A stretch of 64,000 bases of DNA from Escherichia phage fp01, in the sequence record NC_048731.1, one strand, 5' to 3'. A program made the position numbers and the translations under genes. This document shows, piece after piece, positions 3,948 through 20,986 of the stretch; within the stretch, counting starts at the first letter, position 1, and each line of letters begins with the position of its first letter. Below the pieces are notes generated by a model. The model was not told the origin of the DNA. It did no database searches and was given only the letters and a program-made list of their open reading frames with translations.

Positions 3948-5296
3948 AAGTTGTTATATCTAATAAAGCCTATTTCAAGCCCGATGATGAACTTTGGGAT
4001 TATTGTAGTAAGCAAACCACTTATCACATAGAGACAATGACTAGTAAATACCCTATTATGTATAAGAATAGTGGTGTTGTTGCCAAAGAGATTAAGTGGA
4101 TTCCTATCACTCGTCTAGATTTATTAGATGCTAAAGGAGTAAAATACGAATTAGTCGATAAACGCACATTAGCTCCGGCAGATATACCAAAACCTAAGTT
4201 CAAGCTGCGTGAAGAAGATCAGCTTCCAATATACGAAGAATGCGATGATACCTGTATTATTAATGGTAAGCCTGGATTTGGTAAAACTATCCTAGCCCTT
4301 GCACTTGCGTATAAATTTGGCCAAAAAACTCTGGTAATATGTACGAATACATCCATTCGTGAGATGTGGGCAGCAGAAGTTCGTAAATGGTTTGGGTTTG
4401 AACCGGGTATCATAGGTTCTGGGAAATACAATATTGATCCACCAATTGTAGTCAGTAATATTCAAACAGTGAATAAACATGCGAATAATCTTTCTAAAGT
4501 ATTCGGTACTGTTATAGTTGATGAAGTTCACCATTGTGTGGCTACAACTTTCACTAACTTCCTAGAAATATCATGTGCTCGCTATAAGATTGGACTATCC
4601 GGTACATTAAAAAGAAAAGATGGTCTACAAGTTATGTTCAAAGATTTCTTTGGATATAAGATTTTTAGCCCACCGGTTAATAATACTGTTGCACCTACAA
4701 TCCATAGGTACTCTGTACCTGTTGAGTTATCAGGAAATCAGAATGTGCCATGGGCATTACGTGCTAATGATGTGTACAATCATCCTGAGTATCGAGAAAC
4801 TATTATAAACCTAGCACATTTATATGTGAATATGGGGCATAAAGTACTCATTGTAAGCGATAGAACAGAGTTAATCCAAACAGTACTAGAAGCTCTTGCA
4901 CAGCGTGGTGTTACAACTTATGAAATTATAGGGGCAACCCACTTAGATGACCGATTAAAAATCCAGGAAGATATAGCAAAAGGTGGACCTTGTGTACTTG
5001 CAGCAGCTCAGAGTATCTTCTCTGAAGGTATTTCCCTTAATGAGCTATCTTGTTTAATAATGGGAAGTCTTATTAATAATGAATCTCTCATTGAACAGCT
5101 TGCAGGACGTGTTCAACGTATTGTCGATGGTAAACTCGACCCTATTGTTGTAGATCTAATCATGAAAGGTGGTACTGGGCTAAGACAGGCTTCTGGACGT
5201 ATGGCAGTATATCGTAACAACGGGTGGAAAACTATTACCACGACTCCGGAGAAAGCAGTTCAATTAGCTAAAATTGCATTTGGCAACAGCTCATAA
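3944..5296 (+). CDS. SF2 DNA helicase (T5 D10-like)
   Basis: Walker A 'NGKPGFGKT', Walker B/DEAH-like 'VDEVHH', later 'SGT' and Q/R-rich helicase motifs; ATG at 3944 overlaps the upstream stop. Confidence 0.7.
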   Translation: MKVVISNKAYFKPDDELWDYCSKQTTYHIETMTSKYPIMYKNSGVVAKEIKWIPITRLDLLDAKGVKYELVDKRTLAPADIPKPKFKLREEDQLPIYEECDDTCIINGKPGFGKTILALALAYKFGQKTLVICTNTSIREMWAAEVRKWFGFEPGIIGSGKYNIDPPIVVSNIQTVNKHANNLSKVFGTVIVDEVHHCVATTFTNFLEISCARYKIGLSGTLKRKDGLQVMFKDFFGYKIFSPPVNNTVAPTIHRYSVPVELSGNQNVPWALRANDVYNHPEYRETIINLAHLYVNMGHKVLIVSDRTELIQTVLEALAQRGVTTYEIIGATHLDDRLKIQEDIAKGGPCVLAAAQSIFSEGISLNELSCLIMGSLINNESLIEQLAGRVQRIVDGKLDPIVVDLIMKGGTGLRQASGRMAVYRNNGWKTITTTPEKAVQLAKIAFGNSS

Positions 5297-5793: not shown

Positions 5794-6567
5794 ATGGCTA
5801 AGTCTTGGGGCGAAACTACTGGCGGTTCTAACGATAAAATCGAATTCCTGAAGTTCAACAACGGTATCACTCGTGTTCGTATCGTTTCTGGTGTTCTTCC
5901 ACGTTATGTCTATTGGCTGACTAATAAAGAGGGTAACGTAGCTCCTTTTGAATGTCTCCGTTTTAACCGTGACAAAGAGAGCTTTGTTCGTGGTAAAGCT
6001 GATCCAGTTCATGAGATGGGCTTCTTCGAGAAAGAGCTGGATAAAGATGGTAATCGTGTTCCGCTGAAACCGAAGAAAAACTATATCGCTTTTGTTATTG
6101 ACCGTTCTGATAACAAACTGAAAGTAATGGAAGTCAAGGCTACTATTCTGAAAGGCATCCAGTCTATCATGAAGCAGCTGAGCCTGGCAACTCCGTTTGA
6201 TATTGATATTTCTATCGAGAAAAAAGGTAAAGGTTTCGATACTGAGTATGATGTACAGCAGATTGCTGCTATGCAGTTCCAGATTAAGCTGCAAGATCCT
6301 AACAGTGCGGAATCTAAGCAATATGCTGCGGATGTCGATCTGATCGGTGAAGCTATGTGTGATGAAGATGGCGACATCATTAAGTTCGAAAAAGTTCCTT
6401 CTCTGGAACAAACCTATCCGGTTCCTACCTATGAAGAGCAGAAAGAAGCAATTCAAGCCTTCATGGAGGGTCGTGAGAATAAAGATGATGATGCCAAATC
6501 TGGTAATAGCAATGCAGGCTCCCAGAAAGGTATTGACTCAGAAGCTGCAAGCGATCTGGACGACTAA
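5794..6567 (+). CDS. abundant early protein with acidic C-terminal tail, possibly ssDNA-binding protein
   Basis: Strong RBS 'AAAGAGGAAATAAAATATG'; codon usage visibly biased toward major E. coli codons; C-terminus 'DSEAASDLDD' is SSB-like; followed by a strong terminator. Function is inference. Confidence 0.55.
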   Translation: MAKSWGETTGGSNDKIEFLKFNNGITRVRIVSGVLPRYVYWLTNKEGNVAPFECLRFNRDKESFVRGKADPVHEMGFFEKELDKDGNRVPLKPKKNYIAFVIDRSDNKLKVMEVKATILKGIQSIMKQLSLATPFDIDISIEKKGKGFDTEYDVQQIAAMQFQIKLQDPNSAESKQYAADVDLIGEAMCDEDGDIIKFEKVPSLEQTYPVPTYEEQKEAIQAFMEGRENKDDDAKSGNSNAGSQKGIDSEAASDLDD

Positions 6568-6574
6568 TAAATAG

Positions 6575-6598
6575 AGGGGCTTCGGCCCCTTTCTTTTT
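6575..6598 (+). terminator. rho-independent terminator
   Basis: Hairpin 'AGGGGC-TTCG-GCCCCT' (UUCG tetraloop) followed by 'TTCTTTTT'. Confidence 0.7.
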
Positions 6599-6603
6599 AA
6601 CCA

Positions 6604-7581
6604 ATGAGAATATTATTTAGTGCTGATCATCATATCAAACTAGGACAAGATAAAGTTCCAAAGGAATGGCAGAAGCGTCGCTTCCTGATGCTAGGAGAAC
6701 GGTTAAATGATATATTCCATAATCATAACTGTGATCTTCATATTGCTGGTGGTGATATACTTGATGTTGCCGACCCGTCGTCAGAAGAAATAGAACTGCT
6801 TGAACAGTTCATGTCAAGACTTGACCATCCAGGCAAAATCTTTACTGGAAATCATGAAATGTTAACTAAAACCATTTCATGTCTATATCATTATGCAGGA
6901 GTTATTAATAAAGTAACGAGCGGGAAGTGGGAAGTAATTACCAAACCATATCGTTCCCCTGAATTTGATATTGTTCCATATGACGAAATCCATAAATCTA
7001 AGTGGAAACCATCTGAATCAAAACTATGTTTCACGCATGTTCGTGGTGAAATCCCTCCACATGTAAAACCAGAAATTGATCTAACTAAGTATAACTGTTA
7101 TGATACTGTAATTGCTGGCGATTTACATTCTTATACTAATAGCCAGACTATCGGATCTACTAGACTTCTCTACCCAGGGTCTCCATTAACTACATCGTTC
7201 CATAGAGAACGCACAAAAGGTACAAATGGTTGTTTTATCGTTGATACCGACACATTAAAAGTAGAATGGATTGAACTCGGTGATTTACCACAACTGATTC
7301 GTAAAACAATCGGAGCCGGTGAAGAGATGGAACCTAGTGATTATGATCGTGTAGTATATGAAGTTACTGGTGACGTTGTTCAATTAAAGTCAATCAAAGA
7401 CTCTGATTTATTAGATAAGAAGATTAACCATCGAGTTACTAAAGACGCTAAGTTAAATCTTGTCGATCTTGATATGTTAGGTGAACTTGAACTTTACTTC
7501 CGTGAAGTCGAGAAGCTATCTCAAGGCGACATTGATAGAATCTTGGCTAGAGCTGCGAAATATGTCAAAGATTACAATTAA
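6604..7581 (+). CDS. Mre11/SbcD-like metallophosphatase nuclease (T5 D13-like)
   Basis: Calcineurin-like phosphoesterase motifs 'ADHH', 'GGDILD', 'TGNHE'. Confidence 0.75.
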   Translation: MRILFSADHHIKLGQDKVPKEWQKRRFLMLGERLNDIFHNHNCDLHIAGGDILDVADPSSEEIELLEQFMSRLDHPGKIFTGNHEMLTKTISCLYHYAGVINKVTSGKWEVITKPYRSPEFDIVPYDEIHKSKWKPSESKLCFTHVRGEIPPHVKPEIDLTKYNCYDTVIAGDLHSYTNSQTIGSTRLLYPGSPLTTSFHRERTKGTNGCFIVDTDTLKVEWIELGDLPQLIRKTIGAGEEMEPSDYDRVVYEVTGDVVQLKSIKDSDLLDKKINHRVTKDAKLNLVDLDMLGELELYFREVEKLSQGDIDRILARAAKYVKDYN

Positions 7582-9400
7582 GACACTAAAATTTAGTAAC
7601 GTTATGTCTTACGGTAAGGACATCGTAATTCATTTCGATAAGAATCCAGTTACTCAACTAATTGGTGGCAATGGGCTAGGGAAATCCACTATTGCTACTG
7701 TTATTGAAGAATTGTTTTATAACAAGAACTCACGGGGTATTAAGAAGGACGCCCTGTTCTCTTGGTCTACTCCGAAAAAAGAGTATGATATGCACGCTTA
7801 CTTCTCGAAAGATGAAGATGAGTATGAATTGCATAAAGTAGTTAAATCAACTGCTAAAGTAACTCTTATTAAGAATGGAGAAGATATTAGTGGCCACACG
7901 GCAACTCAAACATACAAGATGATTGAAGAGATTATGGGTGGTGACTTCCAAACATTCACCAAACTAATTTATCAATCAGTGGGTTCCAATCTAGACTTTC
8001 TAAAAGCAACAGATGCAACACGTAAGGCTTTTCTTGTCAACTTGTTCAATCAAGAACAGTATAAAGAAATGTCAGAAACTATTAAGGCTGACCGTAAAGA
8101 AATAGCAAATACCTTAAATAATTTGCAGGGCCAAATGGCTGTAATTACGAAGATCCTTAATGGAAAGAATAATCTGGGAACTTTGCAGGAACCTGTAGAA
8201 GTACCGGAGTTTGATGAAGAGCCATTAGCACAAGAACTTACTGAATCGAAAATTAAGGCGGCATTAGCCAAGTCTCAAGAGGCTAATATTACTAAATTGC
8301 GTAATTTGGACAAAGCTGTACAAGTTGCCGAACAATCTTTCGAACCTTTCAAAAATTTGCCCGCGCCTACTGACCAAAACGAAGAGATCTCAAGTGTTAC
8401 GCGTGACCTAACGATTGTGACCTCACGTGCGGGAGAAGTTAAGAAACGTTATCAGAAGTTCAAGCAAGAGGCTTCAAATACTGAATGTCCTACTTGTGGT
8501 ACTCATCTGGATACAACTGCTGCTCAAAAAGCAATGGATATGGCTAGAATAGAATATGACCCTCTGTTCAAAGAGAAGCAATCTCTTGAAGCTAAGCTAG
8601 AACAGTTGAAGAAAGAACAACTTGAGTACGTTGCGTATACTAGAGCAAAGGATGCTTTGGATAAAGCAGTGGCAGCTAGAGACGAGTTCAAAAATTCAAT
8701 GAGTGACGCCTCTTTTGAAGAACTCAATGTGCAAAACCTACAGGTGCAAATCCGACAACTAGAACAGGAAATAGCTGATGGCCGTTCTAAGGTTGCAATT
8801 GCCAAAGAGCATAATGCAAATGTCGAATTAGCCAATGCAAAATATAAAGCGAAACTAGAACAGATTGAGAAAGCTGAGGCAGAAATGTCTGAGATTACTT
8901 CCAAACTGGATGAAGTATCAGAAGCTGTTTCTGATCTAGATATTCTGATTGCTGCATTGAAAAATCTGGTAGGGTATAAACTAGAACATAGCGTGAAAGT
9001 ATTTGAAGAGCTTATCAATAAATACCTTTCCATTATGACTGGCGGTAAGTTCGCACTTGGATTTGAACTTGATGAAACAAAATTACAAGTAGTAATCTTC
9101 AATGATGGAAACCGTACTAGTATGGAGAATTGCTCTACTGGTCAGCAAAGTCGAATCAACCTAGCAACTCTGTTAGCTATTCGAATGCTACTAACATCTA
9201 TTAGTAAAGTTAATATTAATCTTCTATTCCTTGATGAAGTAATTAGCTTTATTGATACGAAAGGACTTGACACCCTTGTTGAATTATTAAATGAGGAAGA
9301 AAGTCTAAATTCTATCATTGTTTCTCATGGGCATACGCATCCATTGGCCCATAAGATTACTGTCAAAAAAGATGCAGAAGGATTTTCCTACTTAGAATAA
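7562..9400 (+). CDS. Rad50/SbcC-like ATPase (T5 D12-like)
   Basis: Walker A 'GGNGLGKST', long coiled coil with zinc-hook-like 'CPTCG', ABC signature 'STGQQSRINLA', Walker B 'LLFLDEV'. Likely start is ATG at 7562 (MSKITIK), not 7481. Confidence 0.75.
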   Translation: MSKITIKTLKFSNVMSYGKDIVIHFDKNPVTQLIGGNGLGKSTIATVIEELFYNKNSRGIKKDALFSWSTPKKEYDMHAYFSKDEDEYELHKVVKSTAKVTLIKNGEDISGHTATQTYKMIEEIMGGDFQTFTKLIYQSVGSNLDFLKATDATRKAFLVNLFNQEQYKEMSETIKADRKEIANTLNNLQGQMAVITKILNGKNNLGTLQEPVEVPEFDEEPLAQELTESKIKAALAKSQEANITKLRNLDKAVQVAEQSFEPFKNLPAPTDQNEEISSVTRDLTIVTSRAGEVKKRYQKFKQEASNTECPTCGTHLDTTAAQKAMDMARIEYDPLFKEKQSLEAKLEQLKKEQLEYVAYTRAKDALDKAVAARDEFKNSMSDASFEELNVQNLQVQIRQLEQEIADGRSKVAIAKEHNANVELANAKYKAKLEQIEKAEAEMSEITSKLDEVSEAVSDLDILIAALKNLVGYKLEHSVKVFEELINKYLSIMTGGKFALGFELDETKLQVVIFNDGNRTSMENCSTGQQSRINLATLLAIRMLLTSISKVNINLLFLDEVISFIDTKGLDTLVELLNEEESLNSIIVSHGHTHPLAHKITVKKDAEGFSYLE

Positions 9401-11228: not shown

Positions 11229-11260
11229 CCCCAGAGGGATATCCCTCTGGGGTTTTCTTT
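11229..11260. terminator. bidirectional rho-independent terminator between converging modules
   Basis: Hairpin 'CCCCAGAGGG-ATAT-CCCTCTGGGG' flanked by A-run upstream and 'TTTTCTTTTATT' downstream. Confidence 0.65.
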
Positions 11261-13389
11261 TATTGAGGTACTATCTGTACCTTTAATTGCTTGAGTTCTT
11301 CTTCTAAGTCTTCAATCCTTTTAATAAGATCTTGAACAACATGCATAGTATCAAGAAGCATTGGAGTTGTATCAAGTTCTTTTTGTTCCTGTTCTGCCCC
11401 ATTGTTATCATAGAATTTTCTAGTTTTAACATAAAGCGGTTCTATAACTTCTGTTTCCTGAGCGATAACACCTCGTCTTATACGTTGAAGATTATCGTTA
11501 TTATATATGAATGTCACAAAGTTTAGATTTTTGATGTTTTCTAAAGCTTTTTCAACAGTTGTATTTTCTATAGAATGTTTAAGGCGCCTATCTGAAGTTG
11601 CATTCTTTTGTAAAGTGTATGTTTCTTCTGATCCTGGTTGCCATTTGTGGAAAAAAATATCGGAATTTAATGGTTGAATACCGACACGAACTCCATAAGC
11701 GTTATTAGCATCGCCAGCAATATGCCATACGGATTGTGCAAAAGATGTTCCGTTGTGATGAATCATCCCCCAGTGACACGAAGTCTTATAACCACCTTGA
11801 CTAGATTGGGCACCACTAAGAAGACTATTAAAAGCGTAATTTGCTCCAATAGCCTGGTCTTCCGCGCTAAATGTACCTTTAGTAAAACCTGTTTCACTCC
11901 AAGCCATCATAGTCCCATATCTTGCTCTATATCGATCGCTACTCAGCGTACCTGTGTCATCAAAGGCAAGGTCTTTTGTCACCCCTTTTGTCTTGTTGTA
12001 TACAGACAGAATCGCATAATAAAGGCCATCCATGTATGCATCGCATCGCAATCCTGCATCCGCTTCAACAACGGTGCCGATTTTGTATTGGGCCTTTACC
12101 TGTCCTGACAATGCCTTTACGCCAGAGCCTGGGCGGACAGCATCAGCATTCATTACACTCCAAGACGTATTCGCGGCAACAAAGCCACCAGAGGCACGAA
12201 TCACCCAAACGCCGACAAAGTTGCGCGGAACGATTTCTGCTGCTGAACGACCATAAACAGGACTGCAGCGAGAAGCGTCAAAGTTGGTTTGTATGTACCT
12301 TGAACCAGAGCCAACCGCAGCAGGAGCGTCCCCCGAAGTTATCGACTGAAAAGCACCGTTAGTTGCCACTTGGCTTGCTAAAGAAGCCAATGTCACCATT
12401 GTGTGCGGCGCTGCGTAAGTTATATTTGGAGCGCCTGATTCAGACACAACCCCGTTGGACGATGAATTCCCGCCGTCACCCCTGCCAAATAAGGCCTGTA
12501 TGGAACCAGTTTGAACACCGTTCCTGTCAGGCACTCGAAACGTTGTTGTTCCGTTACCCAAAGAATATTTACCACGCTTTGATGCGTCAGCAAGCCATTC
12601 CGCATCTGAAATCGGCGTAAGCATTTGCGCATATGCCCAAAGCTCAGGCCAGTCAGCCCTGTTAAGAAGCTGCCCATCAGAAACCACCTCATACGGTTGA
12701 ATATACGCACGGCTATCTCGAAGATGGAAATCACCGACACCGTAGTTCATCACGCCATTCATTGTGGGTCCTACTGTGCCAGTATTAATTTTGTTCTCCA
12801 CCCAACGCTTAGTTACAGCATCATAATCATTAACGGGGTCTCCCGCAAGGGGGGTAGATCCAATAGGACGAACATTTAACCACGCAGCTGCGCGATCTGC
12901 TAAATCTGATAAATTATTTTCAGTCAATAGGCTTTCGTCTTTTGTTGGCACATTATAACTTTGTCTAAAAGCTTCTTTTGATACTACTCCAGTACCCCCT
13001 TGTTCTATAGAAAGTGCAGTGGTTAAACCTGTTAAAGATTTAATAGTTGAGTTGGCACCATCCATGTCTATACTAGCAAATCTTGACCATGCAGTCCATG
13101 AACTGTAAAAAGATCTACTATATATCTCATTACTATTATAAGGTAAGTAAATTTGAGTACAAGAAGTTGCTAAATTGCTTGCATTATTTTTTAAAACTAG
13201 TAATGTACCTGCAGCCGCAACAGGATAGTTAAGAGAAGTAGGAGAGTTAGCATTTTCAGATTGCCAATACTTTCCATACACACTCCCATCAAGTGTATTT
13301 AAATTTGTTCCTGTAGTAATTAAACCATATACAGGTAAAGCGGCTACATCAGTAGCCTTTAAGTTAATTTTATCAATTCTAAGAGCCAT
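11260..13389 (-). CDS. L-shaped tail fibre distal protein with C-terminal intramolecular chaperone (auto-cleaving) domain
   Basis: C-terminal ~110 aa ('KHSIENTTVEKALENIKNLNFVTF...EDLEEELKQLKVQ') resembles the S74-type chaperone domain found at the end of T5 pb1 and other phage fibres; body is Gly/Ser/Thr-rich. Confidence 0.65.
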   Translation of the reverse strand: MALRIDKINLKATDVAALPVYGLITTGTNLNTLDGSVYGKYWQSENANSPTSLNYPVAAAGTLLVLKNNASNLATSCTQIYLPYNSNEIYSRSFYSSWTAWSRFASIDMDGANSTIKSLTGLTTALSIEQGGTGVVSKEAFRQSYNVPTKDESLLTENNLSDLADRAAAWLNVRPIGSTPLAGDPVNDYDAVTKRWVENKINTGTVGPTMNGVMNYGVGDFHLRDSRAYIQPYEVVSDGQLLNRADWPELWAYAQMLTPISDAEWLADASKRGKYSLGNGTTTFRVPDRNGVQTGSIQALFGRGDGGNSSSNGVVSESGAPNITYAAPHTMVTLASLASQVATNGAFQSITSGDAPAAVGSGSRYIQTNFDASRCSPVYGRSAAEIVPRNFVGVWVIRASGGFVAANTSWSVMNADAVRPGSGVKALSGQVKAQYKIGTVVEADAGLRCDAYMDGLYYAILSVYNKTKGVTKDLAFDDTGTLSSDRYRARYGTMMAWSETGFTKGTFSAEDQAIGANYAFNSLLSGAQSSQGGYKTSCHWGMIHHNGTSFAQSVWHIAGDANNAYGVRVGIQPLNSDIFFHKWQPGSEETYTLQKNATSDRRLKHSIENTTVEKALENIKNLNFVTFIYNNDNLQRIRRGVIAQETEVIEPLYVKTRKFYDNNGAEQEQKELDTTPMLLDTMHVVQDLIKRIEDLEEELKQLKVQIVPQ

Positions 13390-13398
13390 TTTAACTCC

Positions 13399-13704
13399 TT
13401 ATGCCCACATGCGAACAGGTGTTTCTGGGTTTACTATAAATTTATCTAGTATAGAGAGATCAAAATCATCAATATTCATAATACGCAGATTAACGTGATA
13501 TCCTTCTTGCACTACATACTCAATATCTTCTATATTTTGATACTCTGTTAAGGGTTTTGCAGGCTGACTGATAATACCGATAAAATCAATACTGACATTT
13601 TCACAATATAAACTACCTGTTTCTTCATCTAAACTAAAGCCAAATTTTATCAAATTAATTTTCATTTCATCAGCATTAGTAAATTTTAGATATAAATCTT
13701 TCAT
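13399..13704 (-). CDS. hypothetical protein within tail-fibre locus
   Basis: Compact ORF between the two fibre genes; no motif. Confidence 0.4.
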   Translation of the reverse strand: MKDLYLKFTNADEMKINLIKFGFSLDEETGSLYCENVSIDFIGIISQPAKPLTEYQNIEDIEYVVQEGYHVNLRIMNIDDFDLSILDKFIVNPETPVRMWA

Positions 13705-13750: not shown

Positions 13751-15654
13751 TTACCGTAAGCCATTAATTTGATCATTATTTAAAGCCCTATACCATACTC
13801 GGAAATTCTTAATATGATATACAAATTTAGAAGGGGTAGGAGATGGTGATGCACCTAACCTAGACGGAATACCTGTCAAACTCACGGGAGTACTAGTAGA
13901 TTTAGCAGTTTTACCATTAAAGAAATTACTAATCTCATTCCCTGTTATTTTTTGAGCATAGGTCATAGGAGGTAGACTTTCTATATCTGGAATAGCTAAG
14001 GTTGGCCCTGTACTAGATCTATATGTTCTTATAGTGGCATTATCAGCGCTATCACAGCGGCAGATAATGTCATACTTAGAACCTCTTACTTGCATAACTT
14101 CTACATAACTAGTATAAGGTCGTACTTTACAATTAAATTCAAAAGATACTGTGCGCTCAAAGTAGTCCGCCAGGGTTCTATAGCCGGCATTATCTGGTAT
14201 ACACCACCATTCATCTGCTGTTCTAGTAGTGGTGGTATCAGTGCTATTACGGATGTAAGAAGTTGGAGCTATGCCTTCCTCAACCTGTATACCCCAAATG
14301 TAGAAACCAGAAACACCATCCCCCTGGTAGACAGTAGTATTGGTATTTTTAGCCATCTGGAGTCTAAATATAGTGCTTCGACTTTCAGTGGCTGCAAAAG
14401 AAACCCAAATTCTATATATACCTCCAGTTAATCTCTCATACCCCCCTCTAATATTACTAGCAGAACCACTTGTAGCAACAGTTTCATTTTTAATATCAAA
14501 AAACATACCAACAGTTGTACCGGAAGCTACACGTAGATATACTAAACGGTTAGCGGTATCATCTTTAACATAAGCAGAATAGCAATAAAAAGTATCAGCA
14601 GTCAAAGATATCCATTTATCGTTGCAGTAATGCTCGCCGTCATTGGTATTCTCGGTAAACTTAGTCATCAACATTTCGCCAGTCGGGCACGCCGAAGCAT
14701 TAGGAGTTGTAATAACTAGACTACCTCCAGTAATTGCTTCTGAATTAGTATATAAATTAGTGCACTGAGACTCCATTAATAAACCTTGCTTTTCAAATCT
14801 AGGTTCATTAATATCTGCAAAACACATTTTACCACTTTTATCTATATAACTGGCGGTAGTTGAGCGAGTAAAATTTGCAGATTTTGTTGGCAATTCCAGA
14901 GTTACATCATTAATTGTTGCTAAATCGTAGGGGGCCATACCAGATAATAATCTCATATCATCAGTTAAAGGTACCCAAACATCCGGATAAGGGACAGGTT
15001 CATACATAATAATACTAGCAGCAGAAGCAGCGGCGGCAGCTTCAGAAGCTTTAGCATTAATTTCAGAAGCTTTAGCGTTAGTCTCTGAAGCTTTAGCATT
15101 AGTCTCAGAAGNNNNNNNNNNNNNNNNNNNNNNNNNNNNNNNNNNNNNNNNNTTTTACTTGCTAATGCATTAGTTTCGCTAGTAGCAGCATTAGTTTCCG
15201 AGGTTTTAGCTTTGGTTTCACTAGATTTTGCATTAGTTTCTGATGCTTTTGCATTAGTCTCGGATGTTTTAGCCTTAGTTTCACTAGCTTTCGCATTAGT
15301 CTCAGATACTTTAGCTGCTGCGGCTGATGCTGCAGATCTATCCGCTGATGCAGCAGATTGAGTAGCAGATGTAGCGGACTGAGTGGCAGAGGCTTCAGAA
15401 GCTCCAGCAGAAATAGCAGCTTCCTGTTCAGAATCCTTAGCATTAAGTTCTGAAGTCTTAGCAGCTATCTCAGAAGCTTTTGCAGCTGCAGCAGATTTAG
15501 CCGTAGCCTCAATAGAGGATACTAATTCACTTGCAGTAATAGAGCTAATAGAATTACCTAGAGTTACAGTATATCTAGGAAATTTACTAGCAGTAGCTTT
15601 AGTATCATCAATATTTAATATCTGTTGTACAATAATCTTAGTAGTTACTGCCAT
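13751..15654 (-). CDS. L-shaped tail fibre proximal protein (interrupted by assembly gap; true length unknown)
   Basis: Reading upstream of the Met at 15007 in the same frame stays open through the 21-nt repeats to the gap; beyond the gap the N-terminal part starts at 15654. Track ORFs 13751..15007 and 14965..15654 are therefore one gene. Confidence 0.55.
15040..15310 (-). repeat. tandem 21-nt repeats encoding 7-aa units (SETNAKA-like)
   Basis: At least 10 copies of 'GCATTAGT(C/T)TC(A/G)GA(A/T)GCTTTA'-like units on the plus strand, encoding 'ASETNAKASETKAKTSETNA...'. Confidence 0.8.
15112..15152. other. assembly gap (41 N)
   Basis: Run of n inside the tandem-repeat region; length is not a multiple of 3, so the downstream frame in the track is artefactual. 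Confidence 0.95.
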
Positions 15655-16076
15655 TATTTAGTTACCCCATCACTGATAAATACTTTACCCTCCATTATGC
15701 GAAAGGAGCTAATTGCAGATCCTACAACATCTCTAGTCATGATTATATCATAGTATCCTGCTAATCGCTGACGGGGGTTATACTTATCTCTATCTTTAGA
15801 TGCTTTAGCTCCTAGATTTTCCACGGATTCTACTGGCAAACTTATAGCCACAGCCCCCTGGGCAGCATCAATAATATTAGTAGTAAAGGATGCTAGGGTT
15901 TCTGCGTTCTCTTCTAGACTACTTTTTATAACACCTCTTAGAGAATACCCCGTTAAATTAACAGGGGTATTTGTAGGTGGGTAAGTACTATCATCAACAT
16001 CTAAGAACTGCATCATTAAACCATATGGTACTTTCTCATCTATTACTAAGTCTATAACTCTATTTTCAGTACTCAT
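15654..16076 (-). CDS. tail collar protein (T5 p132-like)
   Basis: 140 aa; sits between baseplate genes and the fibre gene as in T5; assignment by order and size. Confidence 0.45.
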
Positions 16077-16079
16077 TAT

Positions 16080-18152
16080 TTACCTTATATGGATGTACCC
16101 GTTTTGCAGGTCTATCTTCATTCTGTAATAGGCTTCCGGGTTGGAGGATAGTGCTGCTGCACGATCATATATAATATTTACACCGATTTGGGATAGGAAA
16201 GCATTACCAGCAACTATTTTACTAGCAGTTACAGTACCATTAACTATCATATCACCGTGTAAGACCATAGCAGGGCTAACCCATGCCGAGCCATTCCATT
16301 GTCTAGTAAATGCTGTTTGCGGAGCATTACTATTAAACTCAGTTAATACATCGTATTTAACAGGCGGGGAACCAAAATTACTTTGGAAGAAGGAGTTAGC
16401 ACGACTATCGTCCCATCCTCCTAATCCGGCCACTCCAAGAGAATACATGCCCGGACCTCTCTGGCCATCCGCACCAATAGTACCTTCAGTACCACTCCAC
16501 TGAACAACATCCGCCCAACTAGTACCTTCCAATAATTTATTTGTAACAGGGTCTAGAGTACCAGTTGTAGCATAAATATTCTGAGTCATATCAGTACGGT
16601 TAGGTGGTGTTTTAGACCATCCAGGAGGCGGATAATCTTGCTCCAATGGTTTTGCTGGCAAACTTTTACCAAGTTTATAAACAAATACTGTTTGTTTACC
16701 CTGCATCCCAGTACCAATATCTACGTCTCCATTAGGAGTACCAATAACAACTCCACTAGAAATACGAAGAGTATCGCCATCATAGCGTATCCACTGAGTA
16801 GCATTACCTATATCTAACTTTGGCTTAGCAGAAGTGTTATCCATTCCCATCCAGATACCAGATTTTGTATCTCCCCAAGTTTTACCTTGAGTATAGATTG
16901 CCGGGTTATCTTGGCCAGTTAGATTAGTCATTACAAAGTTAGCAGCATTGATAGTTTTAGTTATAATACTACCATCAACGTTAACTATCTTTTTAATAGG
17001 GTCGAAAGATATTGGTGCTTTTCCTTCTGCATCTAGGAGGCCTATATTAATAGCACCAGTAGCAGCATCGATTAAAAATGTTTGCTTCCACGTGGAGCCA
17101 TCTTTGATCTTACCTTTAATATACGCATAGTTTACTTCTATACCAGTTTCATTAACAAAGCTATTATCAAGATGGGTGTCCTCATTTAGTATAAAAGTCT
17201 GTACTGCAGAATCTGTAACATCTTGAGCATTTGGCCCCCACGCTATAGAGGAGACCTTAAATTTATGCTCAATTTTCCACGGAAACGATATAATAGTTGC
17301 CGCTTGTGCAGCACCTACGTTAATTTTTTGGGCCTTAGTCCATCCAGTTCTTGCAAATTCTGTGGAATCTATATAAGAAACGACAAATTCCCGAACATTG
17401 GCTCCAGATCCCCTATTCCACTCCCACTGTACACGAAGGTCATATCTCTCTTTACCATCTGCAATTCTTGCAGCCTTGAAGGTAATATTGCTAGGAGCAG
17501 TGGGCGGTACAAAGTTATACTCTACAGTAAGAACTTTAGAAAATTCAAAGTATCCAGAGGAGTCTACCGTTACACCATCAGGCATAGTAACTTGCCCTGA
17601 TATGCGTACTTTATAATCACCAATAGGGACACCACCAAATCTAATAGTGGGGGATAACGGACCTACATAATATTTTACCCACGTACTATTTGAAGGTTGA
17701 GTACTTTTTAACTCAATAGTACAGTAGCTTGCTTCACCAGTTGTTTCTACGACAACTATCGGTGCACCTACCCCAACATCCACAGGTTCTGATTCAGATC
17801 TTGCTGCAACAATTGTTGGCTTCTCTTTTGTCCTAAAGTTAGTCTCATTAGAGAGATTGATACCAATCTTAGCCTCTAACAGTTCAGAATCAATAATAGA
17901 GTCGTAAAAAGCCCCTTGAATCTCATAAGAGGTTGAAGGGGTCAGATTATTAATCATTACGAAGAAAGTATCTATACCAGTATAATCACGTCTATCTATA
18001 CTTTCTCCTGTCTTTAACCAAAAAGATCTGCCAATAACGTCATAGTCAGTATATATAGAATGCTGGACATATGCCATTGTATATCCAGTCATTATACTAT
18101 TTAAGACCATTTTGGCTGGTGCATTATTCGAAATCATTAAATGGATGCCCAC
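16080..18152 (-). CDS. baseplate tube / central fibre protein (T5 pb4-like)
   Basis: 690 aa, Gly/Thr/Ser-rich beta-rich composition, downstream of hub gene. Confidence 0.45.
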   Translation of the reverse strand: MGIHLMISNNAPAKMVLNSIMTGYTMAYVQHSIYTDYDVIGRSFWLKTGESIDRRDYTGIDTFFVMINNLTPSTSYEIQGAFYDSIIDSELLEAKIGINLSNETNFRTKEKPTIVAARSESEPVDVGVGAPIVVVETTGEASYCTIELKSTQPSNSTWVKYYVGPLSPTIRFGGVPIGDYKVRISGQVTMPDGVTVDSSGYFEFSKVLTVEYNFVPPTAPSNITFKAARIADGKERYDLRVQWEWNRGSGANVREFVVSYIDSTEFARTGWTKAQKINVGAAQAATIISFPWKIEHKFKVSSIAWGPNAQDVTDSAVQTFILNEDTHLDNSFVNETGIEVNYAYIKGKIKDGSTWKQTFLIDAATGAINIGLLDAEGKAPISFDPIKKIVNVDGSIITKTINAANFVMTNLTGQDNPAIYTQGKTWGDTKSGIWMGMDNTSAKPKLDIGNATQWIRYDGDTLRISSGVVIGTPNGDVDIGTGMQGKQTVFVYKLGKSLPAKPLEQDYPPPGWSKTPPNRTDMTQNIYATTGTLDPVTNKLLEGTSWADVVQWSGTEGTIGADGQRGPGMYSLGVAGLGGWDDSRANSFFQSNFGSPPVKYDVLTEFNSNAPQTAFTRQWNGSAWVSPAMVLHGDMIVNGTVTASKIVAGNAFLSQIGVNIIYDRAAALSSNPEAYYRMKIDLQNGYIHIR

Positions 18153-20986
18153 TCCACAGACTGTTCTCCATCATCTCCTTCCGCTCTAATACGAAAATAT
18201 AGTTTTCTATTGATTCCTAGAGCATCACTATTATGAAGAGCAAAATCTGCCTTATTATACATTAATAAATAGTCATAAGTATACTGATTTTCAATACGTA
18301 CACTTCTTAGCATTCTATTCTGGGAATCATAGATTTCCAGAGTATAGAATATACTTTCTATTATATCTTCTTCTGGTATCCTATCCCAAGCTAGTTTTAC
18401 ATCTGGGCCTACAAATTCAGTTACATCCCCAGAAGCCGTATTAGTTACCCTAAAATTAGATACTACGCTTAGGTTTTTAGCAGAGTTAAGTTCTATAGAT
18501 AATGTTACTGGAGAACTTCTCCTACCATTTATATCCACAGCCCTTATTTCAAATATTGCTAAACCTGCAGGCTCTCCAATTATCTCTTGGATCATGCGTT
18601 CATTGGGATTTGTTTCTAGTTGCTGCACAATATAAGGCTCAGCATGACCGGAATGCACGATAGAGTAATAAACTACGTTATTAGTTAAACTTGGAAGCCA
18701 GGATAACTCACCATTTTTTCCTATGGAACCAACTAAACCACCAGGTGTAGGAGTATATTTAAAATCTCTAGGAGGAAGAACATTGTTACTAATATCTGGT
18801 ATATCATTACCACTATTATCTACTTGATCAGAGTTGATAAATACATCTTCCCCATACTCCTGTAGAGTAACATTTATCTTTCCTTCCCTAGAGTTTTCGA
18901 CTTCATCTACTAAAAAGTACTTCTTATCCCATCCGTAACGGTCGTATGTAAATGCAATAGCATCATTAGGCTCAATACCAATGAATTGATATGGTAAAGA
19001 AAATGAGAGGGTTCTAGAATACCTAGATTTCTTAAGTTCTCTGTCTGCAAAACTTCTAGCAGTATAGTAGTTAGTTATATTTGCAAAAGATAATTGTAAT
19101 TTTTTGTCTAAATTTTTATCTTGCTCTTTATATCTAGAGTTATAAAAGGTAATAGAGTTAGTTTTCCAGCTAAGAGCTGGGTCTACGATAGATGCTTGAA
19201 CTGAGTTGAATTTATTTCTACCAGTAGTATCTGATAGCTCTAAATCACCATAAGTATCCAGAAAATTAATTTCTAATGGAGTATTAGAATATTTTTCTAC
19301 AGTAATCCTATATTGACCCGATAAGTTGTTAATAGCCCCACCGTAGGATTCTAGTAAACCTTGAACATTTTTAAATACTGATTCAGATGTATCTAGAATA
19401 GTATTCATTTGTACTATTTGTCTATTTTCTGCTAATGGATCAGTCCACCCAACATATCTCCAGTATGGCTGCCAGGATACTTGGTAGGATTCATCTATAA
19501 TATCTAGGATAGCAGCTTCTTGTACCAATTGTTGGAGAGGGAACTGATCAATAGCAATGTTTGCACCATACCTATCTGAAGTTAAGTAGTCAAGTGTTTG
19601 CCAAATACCATTTAAACTAGTACTATTAGCAGTTACTCTACCATCAGAATGGTAGATTTTTATCTTCTTACCCTGAATCTCAGCACTAACTTCTGGAATC
19701 TCAGTTCTATTTTCATTAATAGTAAAGCGTACTACCGCGTATGCAGTATCTAATAGTTTATATCTAGCATCCCAGTACTCAGGCCCATTACCGTTCATAC
19801 TTTGGAGATAGAACCCACGCTCCTTCGCTATATTTACTAATACTTCAGAAGCCGTTTGATCAGCTTTTCCATGATAAGTCCAAATCCTTATATCACCATT
19901 ACCATCGTTATATTTATATTCCTGGCCATGCACAGAAGGACTACTAGAAGACATTCCTGATGCTATTCTCTGCATGGTGTCTCCTGCTACTTTTTTAACA
20001 CCGAAACAGGTTCTAGCAGAGCTATCATTAGAGTCCATACAAATCATAGGGTTATCCCCGAAGGAAAAGTCAAGAAAACCGTCTATCTCTCCTTCAGCAA
20101 AAGCATATACTACGTAAACTATATTAGGATTGTGTAATTCCGTATCCGCAAAAATAGGTATTCCCGGTATTTTCTGTACACCATAAACTACTGGTATATA
20201 CTTAGCAGCAAGGTTAAAATCTATATCTACTTCTTTAGTAACAGTCTCATAATACTTTTTAAGACTATAACTTCTAGATAGTCCAAATAGCTTTTTCTTA
20301 GACTTTAGCTTGTATCTTTCTTCCTGTACCTGATACTTTGCTAGAATAGAGATACTTTTATTGGCGTGAAAGAAACCGTAGTCTTCTTGGTACTCAAGTC
20401 TTTTAGCCCCATTAGATGGAAGTAATTGTCCTGCTACAACTTCAAGCCCTCTATGAGAAGCATCATCAGTAAATCTACCATTAACCCTATCAAAATCATA
20501 GAATTGGTTAGAACAATTCCAAGTAATTGTGGAGGTTCCAACTCCCGAAGTACTAATATTATCCTTAATACCTCCACCAGTAATTCTACCTCTAAAGTAT
20601 AATAAAGGCCCATTTGTGTCTGGGTCTACAGGTAAAATAGAACCATCCTCTGTAATAATTGCTTGATGAATTGATACTAGTCTATCTAAAAAGGACACAC
20701 CATTCTGCACTAATTTCAGTACTTCATCCTGCGCTGTACCTGTAATAGTAAAAGATAGGCTGCCAATAGATAAATCTCTATTTTGTTTATGTGTGCTAAT
20801 AGACTTAACTTTACCGGCCTGGTACAGAATACCGTTATATAGTACATCTCTAAAATAGTCAGTTAAGTAAATAAAAGCAGTACTAGTACCAGTAGAGCCG
20901 GGTAATTCTAGAGAAATTAGACTAGCAGTTTTTATTCTGCTATTATTTTTTAAGTAGTTTCTAGCACTATCTAATATTTTTTTCAT
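18137..20986 (-). CDS. baseplate hub protein (T5 pb3-like, 949 aa)
   Basis: Large protein directly after Dit-like gene; size matches T5 pb3 as recalled. Confidence 0.55.
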   Translation of the reverse strand: MKKILDSARNYLKNNSRIKTASLISLELPGSTGTSTAFIYLTDYFRDVLYNGILYQAGKVKSISTHKQNRDLSIGSLSFTITGTAQDEVLKLVQNGVSFLDRLVSIHQAIITEDGSILPVDPDTNGPLLYFRGRITGGGIKDNISTSGVGTSTITWNCSNQFYDFDRVNGRFTDDASHRGLEVVAGQLLPSNGAKRLEYQEDYGFFHANKSISILAKYQVQEERYKLKSKKKLFGLSRSYSLKKYYETVTKEVDIDFNLAAKYIPVVYGVQKIPGIPIFADTELHNPNIVYVVYAFAEGEIDGFLDFSFGDNPMICMDSNDSSARTCFGVKKVAGDTMQRIASGMSSSSPSVHGQEYKYNDGNGDIRIWTYHGKADQTASEVLVNIAKERGFYLQSMNGNGPEYWDARYKLLDTAYAVVRFTINENRTEIPEVSAEIQGKKIKIYHSDGRVTANSTSLNGIWQTLDYLTSDRYGANIAIDQFPLQQLVQEAAILDIIDESYQVSWQPYWRYVGWTDPLAENRQIVQMNTILDTSESVFKNVQGLLESYGGAINNLSGQYRITVEKYSNTPLEINFLDTYGDLELSDTTGRNKFNSVQASIVDPALSWKTNSITFYNSRYKEQDKNLDKKLQLSFANITNYYTARSFADRELKKSRYSRTLSFSLPYQFIGIEPNDAIAFTYDRYGWDKKYFLVDEVENSREGKINVTLQEYGEDVFINSDQVDNSGNDIPDISNNVLPPRDFKYTPTPGGLVGSIGKNGELSWLPSLTNNVVYYSIVHSGHAEPYIVQQLETNPNERMIQEIIGEPAGLAIFEIRAVDINGRRSSPVTLSIELNSAKNLSVVSNFRVTNTASGDVTEFVGPDVKLAWDRIPEEDIIESIFYTLEIYDSQNRMLRSVRIENQYTYDYLLMYNKADFALHNSDALGINRKLYFRIRAEGDDGEQSVEWASI

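Follow-up and report, generated by a model that had tools for sequence, protein, structure and literature searches.

The window analyzed here, a stretch of 64,000 nucleotides from Escherichia phage fp01 (NC_048731.1), carries on its minus strand a locus that we assign to the LtfA type of lateral tail fiber genes and that the list of open reading frames (ORFs) presents in two pieces, an ORF of 229 residues (14965..15654) and an ORF of 418 residues (13751..15007). The window has a single stretch of N, 41 bases long, which lies at this locus, inside an array of 21-nucleotide (seven-residue) repeats. Between the gap and its Met, the frame of the 418-residue ORF is open, with the translation SETNAKASETNAKASEINAKASEAAAAASAASII-MYEPVPYP, while the bases encoding SETNAKASETNAKASEINAKASEAAAAASAASII, taken in the frame of the 229-residue ORF, yield LLRLMLKLQRLTLKLLKLMLKLLKL... 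and thereby the Leu-rich tail of that ORF (LLRLMLKLQRLTLKLL...). The starts of the two ORFs are 647 nucleotides apart, that is 606 + 41, so joining the flanks in frame requires a gap length that is a multiple of three. As 41 is not divisible by three, the frame is broken, and gene callers therefore report two ORFs. A first-pass annotation had proposed that the split is an artefact of the gap, that the Leu-rich tail consists of the 21-nucleotide repeats read out of frame, that the frame is open upstream of the Met, and that a gap length other than a multiple of three breaks it; both ORFs and the 41-N gap are found as it described them, and comparison of the same bases in the two frames leads to the same conclusions. 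We are thus highly confident that positions 13751 to 15654 hold a single LtfA-type gene of at least 631 residues, split by an assembly failure in the 21-nucleotide array. The split is an artefact of assembly and annotation, and not new biology; the gene itself is of an ordinary kind that is already known. Regarding the fragments themselves, the 229-residue ORF, with its X residues, has no entry in the protein collection, and an exact look-up of the 418-residue ORF in the contig index returns no match. Among the fp01 accessions, the 418-residue ORF exactly matches QIE02373.1 (YP_009841466.1), and exact matches also exist for the collar protein of 140 residues (QIE02375.1), the 101-residue ORF (QIE02372.1), and the 709-residue fiber protein (QIE02371.1); the accession numbering alone would make QIE02374 a separate coding sequence (CDS) for the N-terminal fragment. 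The features of the locus are collected in Table 1.

Table 1. Features of the ltfA locus of phage fp01, in window coordinates.
Feature	Position	Strand	Basis
Whole ltfA (lateral tail fiber protein A), cut by the N gap	13751..15654	-	ORFs, frame arithmetic, single-ORF homologs; predicted product of at least 631 residues
N-terminal anchor, residues 1-39, predicted to insert into the LtfC collar ring	15538..15654	-	Match of P0004 to DT57C LtfA; helix start at T40 (PMC10713586)
N-side heptad stalk, residues 40-167: 18 heptads S-x-x-x-A-x-x, then SK and one base	15153..15537	-	Register table; Tandem Repeats Finder period of 21
Assembly gap, 41 N (a size estimate)	15112..15152	.	Relatives: 33 nucleotides, ATGCRGCAGCAGCTTCACARACAGCAGCAAAAA, coding with the flanking bases for N-AAAASQTAAK-T
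C-side heptad stalk: two codon-completing bases and 5 heptads (SETNAKA SETNAKA SEINAKA SEAAAAA SAASIIM)	15005..15111	-	
Internal Met codon, called as start of the 418-residue ORF	15005..15007	-	Ile/Thr in most relatives; no Shine-Dalgarno
Spurious Leu-rich tail of the 229-residue ORF: stalk and beginning of the C-terminal part in the wrong frame	14965..15111	-	
Domain like the head spike fiber of the gene transfer agent (GTA), β-sandwich	14213..14881	-	NF048003, PDB 6TB9, AlphaFold2
Putative C-terminal LamG/concanavalin-A-like β-sandwich, presumed glycan-binding tip	13754..14212	-	Sub-threshold PF13385, Foldseek
ltfC/p132 collar protein, 140 residues, predicted LtfA attachment partner	15654..16076	-	PF23926 LtfC at 50 bits; fp01 QIE02375.1
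Conserved 101-residue ORF between ltfA and ltfB	13399..13704	-	Kept in all relatives examined; fp01 QIE02372.1
LtfB-like second fiber protein, 709 residues, with C-terminal intramolecular chaperone domain	11260..13389	-	Peptidase_S74 at 46.8 bits; fp01 QIE02371.1

Homologs were found by protein search with the two halves of the protein joined. Twelve of them are free of gaps, and each is a single ORF (519, 520, 630, 630, 631, 666, 680, 680, and four times 729 residues), is 87-97% identical to the C-terminal part of the window's protein, and has no stop codon in its array. Both flanks of the gap are collinear with gap-free contigs from independent samples, namely L003 (a 111.9-kb Logan contig), L004/L005 (human gut metagenomes), L006, and L017. 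In four distinct gap-free genes, present on five contigs, exactly 33 nucleotides face the 41 N, ATGC[A/G]GCAGCAGCTTCACA[A/G]ACAGCAGCAAAAA; supplemented by the one and the two bases that remain at the edges of the gap, these encode NAAAASQTAAKT and complete the heptads SKNAAAA and SQTAAKT, giving a protein of 631 residues. L004 and L006, which at 96% nucleotide identity come closest to the window, carry this form. Comparison thus supports the earlier proposal of one long ORF bearing a heptad array, and its general assignment to a tail fiber gene is refined to an LtfA-type lateral tail fiber protein. We consider it very improbable that the fiber gene of fp01 is truly broken by a frameshift or a stop hidden in the gap, as in a fiber-defective laboratory variant or a mixed population producing two fragments or none. 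The assembler did fail where the short form is easy, which heterogeneity of the population could explain. However, the arrays of the relatives are devoid of stops, the length of 41 fully accounts for the frame break, both flanks are stop-free in the fiber frame and 94-96% identical to intact genes, and, according to its paper, S. Choleraesuis VAL201 served as the host for growing fp01 (PMC9961651). A mobile element or a homing endonuclease in the gap is ruled out, as gap-free relatives have none there and the size estimate is only 41 nucleotides.

The same relatives bear on the 418-residue ORF taken as a genuine separate protein started at the ATG at 15007, the N-terminal part being then a separate stalk protein. 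An ATG is indeed present, GenBank and RefSeq annotate a 418-residue product, and the related phage HMD-P3 also has two CDS at this place, the latter split being due to adapter sequence and NN, as described below. In L004/L005, however, the ATG is replaced by ATA (Ile), most other relatives have Ile or Thr, and in L003, which keeps the ATG, it lies inside a 630-residue ORF. The 20 nucleotides upstream of the ATG (CTTCTGCTGCTAGTATTATT) are devoid of a Shine-Dalgarno sequence, the upstream frame is open and codes for repeats up to the N run, and the product would have neither the LtfC-binding N-terminus nor the trimerizing stalk. A separate 418-residue protein is therefore scarcely conceivable. 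An internal translation start at 15007 is ruled out by the missing Shine-Dalgarno sequence and the non-conserved Met. The true start of ltfA is at 15654, where its ATG overlaps the ltfC stop codon by one base.

The protein is, judging by its sequence, the LtfA-type lateral (L-shaped) tail fiber protein of a T5-like phage (Demerecviridae, Tequintavirus). The gene order is that of T5, with a 949-residue pb3 homolog (18137-20986), a 690-residue pb4 homolog (16080-18152), and LtfC (15654-16076) followed by ltfA, and the gene tables of the relatives include the PB4 and LtfC Pfam families. Downstream of ltfA are the conserved 101-residue ORF and the 709-residue fiber protein with its Peptidase_S74 domain. 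The homolog P0004, 95% identical to the window's protein, aligns through its residues 1-207 with residues 1-216 of LtfA from phage DT57C (8HQZ_d, E=1.7e-37), and the tail fiber families PHROG 5481 and 24369 match residues 1-166 and 3-198, respectively. Pfam reports no match in the N-terminal 167 residues, nor in the full protein of phage IME178. The distal part comprises two putative β-sandwich domains. The first one is assigned to the GTA head spike fiber domain (NF048003, 112.4 bits with a cut-off of 36, full model 1-182), and P0004 residues 256-478 report a hit with Rcc01080 (PDB 6TB9, E=2.8e-20); AlphaFold2 block-mean predicted local distance difference test (pLDDT) values are mostly 73-94 over this domain. 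The second returns a hit with the Laminin G/concanavalin A-like lectin family PF13385 (21.1 bits, under the gathering threshold of 27.6). The AlphaFold2 model of the 452-residue C-terminal part has a mean pLDDT of 77, the stalk remnant being predicted as helical, and a Foldseek search with this model identifies as best hits tail fiber chains of two Pseudomonas phages, Pa193 and E217, with tandem laminin/neurexin LG pairs ranking next (probability 1.0, with template-modelling scores of only 0.2-0.37 owing to domain orientation). Pfam analysis reports no Peptidase_S74 in fp01 LtfA or in the 729-residue IME178 homolog, and reports one in the neighboring LtfB (709 residues), a protein also matching the tail fiber family PHROG 6921 (E=8e-193). 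Since it is devoid of S74, fp01 LtfA belongs to the S74-less proximal fiber subtype and not to the DT57C subtype.

The repeat array connects the N-terminal anchor to these distal domains. According to Tandem Repeats Finder, arrays with a period of 21 flank the gap on either side, at 15042-15111 (score 112) and at 15167-15312 (scores 85-180), the latter also exhibiting higher orders of 42 and 63 nucleotides. At the protein level, the register S-x-x-x-A-x-x is unbroken over residues 40-167, where 18 complete heptads are followed by SK, and 5 more lie beyond the gap; the last of them, SAASIIM, ends in the Met of the 418-residue ORF. Position 1 is Ser in all heptads from residue 47, the first heptad (TASELVS, residue 40) starting with Thr. 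In the relative L006, Ser occupies position 1 in 24 out of 25 heptads and Ala occupies position 5 in 18 out of 25. The heptad periodicity is far above chance level. At the core positions, small residues (Ala, Ser) take the place of the Leu, Ile, or Val of canonical heptads with apolar a and d positions; the 3/4 spacing of Ser and Ala suggests a small-residue core, and hence a stalk that would be an Ala/Ser-core variant of the coiled-coil heptad repeat.

This array is a recurrent breakpoint in many public assemblies, beyond that of fp01. When contigs were fetched through exact matches to the flanking proteins, 16 out of 20 were found to end inside the ltfA array. Among the ten with the exact collar protein of the window, nine stop inside ltfA and a single one reads through (631 residues); four of these nine stop a few codons from the gap edge of the window, at ...ALASKNA, ...QTAAKT, or ...QTAAKTSET. 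The ten contigs with the exact 101-residue ORF comprise seven that begin inside the array and three that read through it (631, 520, and 519 residues). Five of the seven begin 445-447 residues from the stop, as compared with 452 in the window. Two of the seven (L019 and L020) are near-complete Tequintavirus genomes from metagenome or Logan assemblies, with lengths of 108,953 and 109,588 bp, and terminate exactly in the ltfA array. The HMD-P3 record (L001, PQ462667.1) provides a further example: at ~4774-4848 its array holds Illumina TruSeq adapter sequence (AGATCGGAAGAGCGTCGTGTAGGGAAAGAGTGT ... AGATCTCGGTGGTCGCCGTATCATT), with 33 nucleotides that match the adapter exactly, then more of the adapter and NN, as a result of which its ltfA is annotated as two CDS. 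As to the 41 N of fp01, CLC scaffolding joins contigs by a run of N of estimated length, and an odd figure like 41 fits this practice. For the fp01 genome, MiSeq reads (2337x) were put through CLC de novo assembly with its finishing module, and MinION reads (2067, with a mean of 7.5 kb; BioProject PRJNA450422) were also used; the result was presented as one contig of 109,515 bp, without mention of the gap or of the tail fibers (PMC9961651).

The first-pass annotation also stated that the repeat copy number, and with it the length of the fiber, is not fixed by the sequence. Indeed, the minimal fill is 33 nucleotides, and any fill of 33+21k nucleotides leaves the reading frame intact and the heptads in register, so that the heptad count given for fp01 is an inference. 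A comparison of copy number among homologs, which that annotation had suggested, gives stalks of 65, 177, 212, 226, and 275 residues in close homologs (from T40 to PYPDVW), all differences being multiples of seven. The short arrays exhibit synonymous-site degeneracy and contain no exact DNA repeat of 17-19 nucleotides or more, so they should assemble easily. The long IME178 array contains exact repeats of 33-38 nucleotides as well as higher-order repeats of 126/147 nucleotides, and its repeated 21-mers CTAATGCATTAGCAAGTAAAA and ACTTCTGAAACTAATGCTAAA closely resemble the sequence at the two contig ends of the window. The break would be easier to account for with a longer array, or with a lysate of mixed copy number, than with the plain 33-nucleotide fill. 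It is thus a serious possibility, to which we give somewhat less than an even chance, that the single ORF has far more than 33 nucleotides hidden in its gap, in an array of the 666-, 680-, or 729-residue type with 'SETNALASKNAAA...' modules, the 41 N being then a poor estimate; the breaks of contigs from other samples at the same two points also point in this direction. Conversely, 41 is only 8 nucleotides off 33, paired reads at 2337x should provide a fair estimate, and the nearest relatives are of the 33-nucleotide form. The 41-N estimate therefore favors 33 nucleotides, whereas the assembly failure favors a longer or heterogeneous array.

Three points weigh against the reading as a single gene with a product of at least 631 residues. 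The missing bases of fp01 itself are unseen and may formally include a stop or a frameshift; the assembly failure hints at more than the plain 33-nucleotide fill, for example a longer array or a mixed population; and the 519- and 520-residue forms, possibly along with other lengths derived from metagenomes, could be collapsed assemblies. As regards these two short forms (P0009, 520 residues, and P0010, 519 residues, from contigs L016 and L018), their 65-residue stalks have junctions at the repeat motifs SELNAK|TSETNAK and KSAA|DALASK, and could be either true deletions of 16 heptads or collapsed assemblies. Near-identical LtfA proteins differ by whole heptads alone (stalks of 65 to 275 residues), which at a helical rise of ~1.5 A per residue corresponds by our own arithmetic to ~10 to 41 nm. 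The length of the stalk may accordingly be a genuinely variable trait, with an fp01 lysate mixed for copy number and a fiber reach tuned by recombination in the array, for instance to the thickness of the O-antigen or capsule, an idea that we regard as rather unlikely.

The single split gene suggests the following scheme. The assembly broke in the 21-nucleotide array and the scaffolder filled the hole with 41 N, leaving an N-terminal fragment of 229 residues that runs on out of frame and a fragment of 418 residues beginning at an internal Met. In the cryo-electron microscopy structure of DT57C, the LtfA residues preceding T40 are β-strands, forming a lasso threaded into the dodecameric LtfC ring, and a long helix starts at T40 within a three-helix coiled coil pointing outwards (PMC10713586). 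If fp01 resembles DT57C, LtfA residues 1-39 would thread into the dodecameric LtfC collar and, from ~T40 onwards, some 25 or more heptads with Ser at one core position and Ala at the other would form an α-helical stalk, likely trimeric by analogy with the DT57C structure. At the distal end, the GTA head-spike-like and LamG-like β-sandwiches presumably bind a surface glycan, and the neighboring LtfB fiber probably docks onto LtfA, as in DT57C and in phage IrisVonRoten.

Regarding the neighboring genes, the exact sequence of the 101-residue ORF is present on at least 16 contigs, and only PHROG families of unknown function match it; given an LtfA without an S74 chaperone, it might be a fiber assembly factor. 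The LtfB of fp01 is alone in its 90%-identity cluster among ~15 billion proteins, the versions of its relatives comprising 703-718 residues, and among the host-range elements of this locus it has probably diverged most. ARAGORN reports no tRNA in the window.

The value of this diagnosis is mainly one of data quality. The fp01 record (MH745368/NC_048731) is described as complete and yet carries a gap, because of which ltfA appears as two CDS under the names 'hypothetical protein' or 'tail protein'. The fp01 paper ascribes the polyvalent host range to a pb5-like receptor-binding protein (gp108) alone and leaves the lateral fibers unmentioned (PMC9961651), while the lateral fibers of T5-like phages are host-range determinants that recognize O-antigens (PMC10713586, PMC4728585). 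The present analysis corrects the annotation and points to lateral fibers overlooked in the host-range analysis of this phage. Moreover, since most short-read assemblies of related phages are interrupted at this array, and another GenBank record has adapter sequence trapped in it, Tequintavirus ltfA lengths derived from short reads need caution. The sole mildly novel possibility is a real variation in heptad copy number, perhaps within one lysate.

Several known systems share parts of this architecture. The Escherichia phage IME178, a Tequintavirus whose genome is 95.5% identical to the window over 25 kb, possesses the same fiber and the same neighbors, its 729-residue LtfA (QYC97257.1, annotated as tail fiber protein) being encoded by one ORF and 95% identical to fp01 over the C-terminal 418 residues; it differs by a stalk 98 residues (14 heptads) longer than in the minimal fp01 reconstruction and by an Ile at the site of the false-start Met. 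In the IME178 record (L002, MZ398246.1), the pb4 and pb3 homologs at 5967-8546 appear under the name 'tail fiber protein' as several CDS that overlap, which suggests frameshift errors in that record. In T5, the same locus encodes the L-shaped tail fiber Pb1 (Ltf), attached via p132/LtfC. PHROG 24369 (profile length 1396), which we take to be the T5 pb1 family, matches the N-terminal ~200 residues of fp01 LtfA. However, T5 possesses one fiber of 1396 residues with an S74 chaperone, whereas fp01 has a two-gene LtfA/LtfB locus and other distal domains. The LtfA of DT57C (PDB 8HQZ chain d; PMC4728585, PMC10713586) occupies the same place, directly after ltfC and followed by an S74-bearing LtfB gene, and its N-terminal ~200 residues are homologous, so that the lasso N-terminus and the three-helix coiled coil from T40 are expected to be alike in fp01. 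In contrast, DT57C LtfA comprises 1076 residues and ends in a Peptidase_S74 domain, while that of fp01, of at least 631 residues, ends in the GTA-spike-like and LamG-like β-sandwiches, and the SETNAKx heptads of the fp01 stalk form a far more regular array. One of these distal domains is common to Rcc01080 of the Rhodobacter capsulatus GTA (PDB 6TB9), where it belongs to a capsid spike and not to the tip of a lateral fiber. Lastly, Gp22 of IrisVonRoten, the proximal lateral fiber of another Tequintavirus, has an N-terminus 87% identical to that of fp01 LtfA over the first ~30% (P0091), and the fibers of the AKFV33 type are distantly related in the distal region (26% identity). The stalks of the IrisVonRoten/AKFV33-type fibers are of another composition and longer (301-341 residues), with a divergent distal domain, and the T-shaped distal fiber of IrisVonRoten is described as joined to the proximal one.

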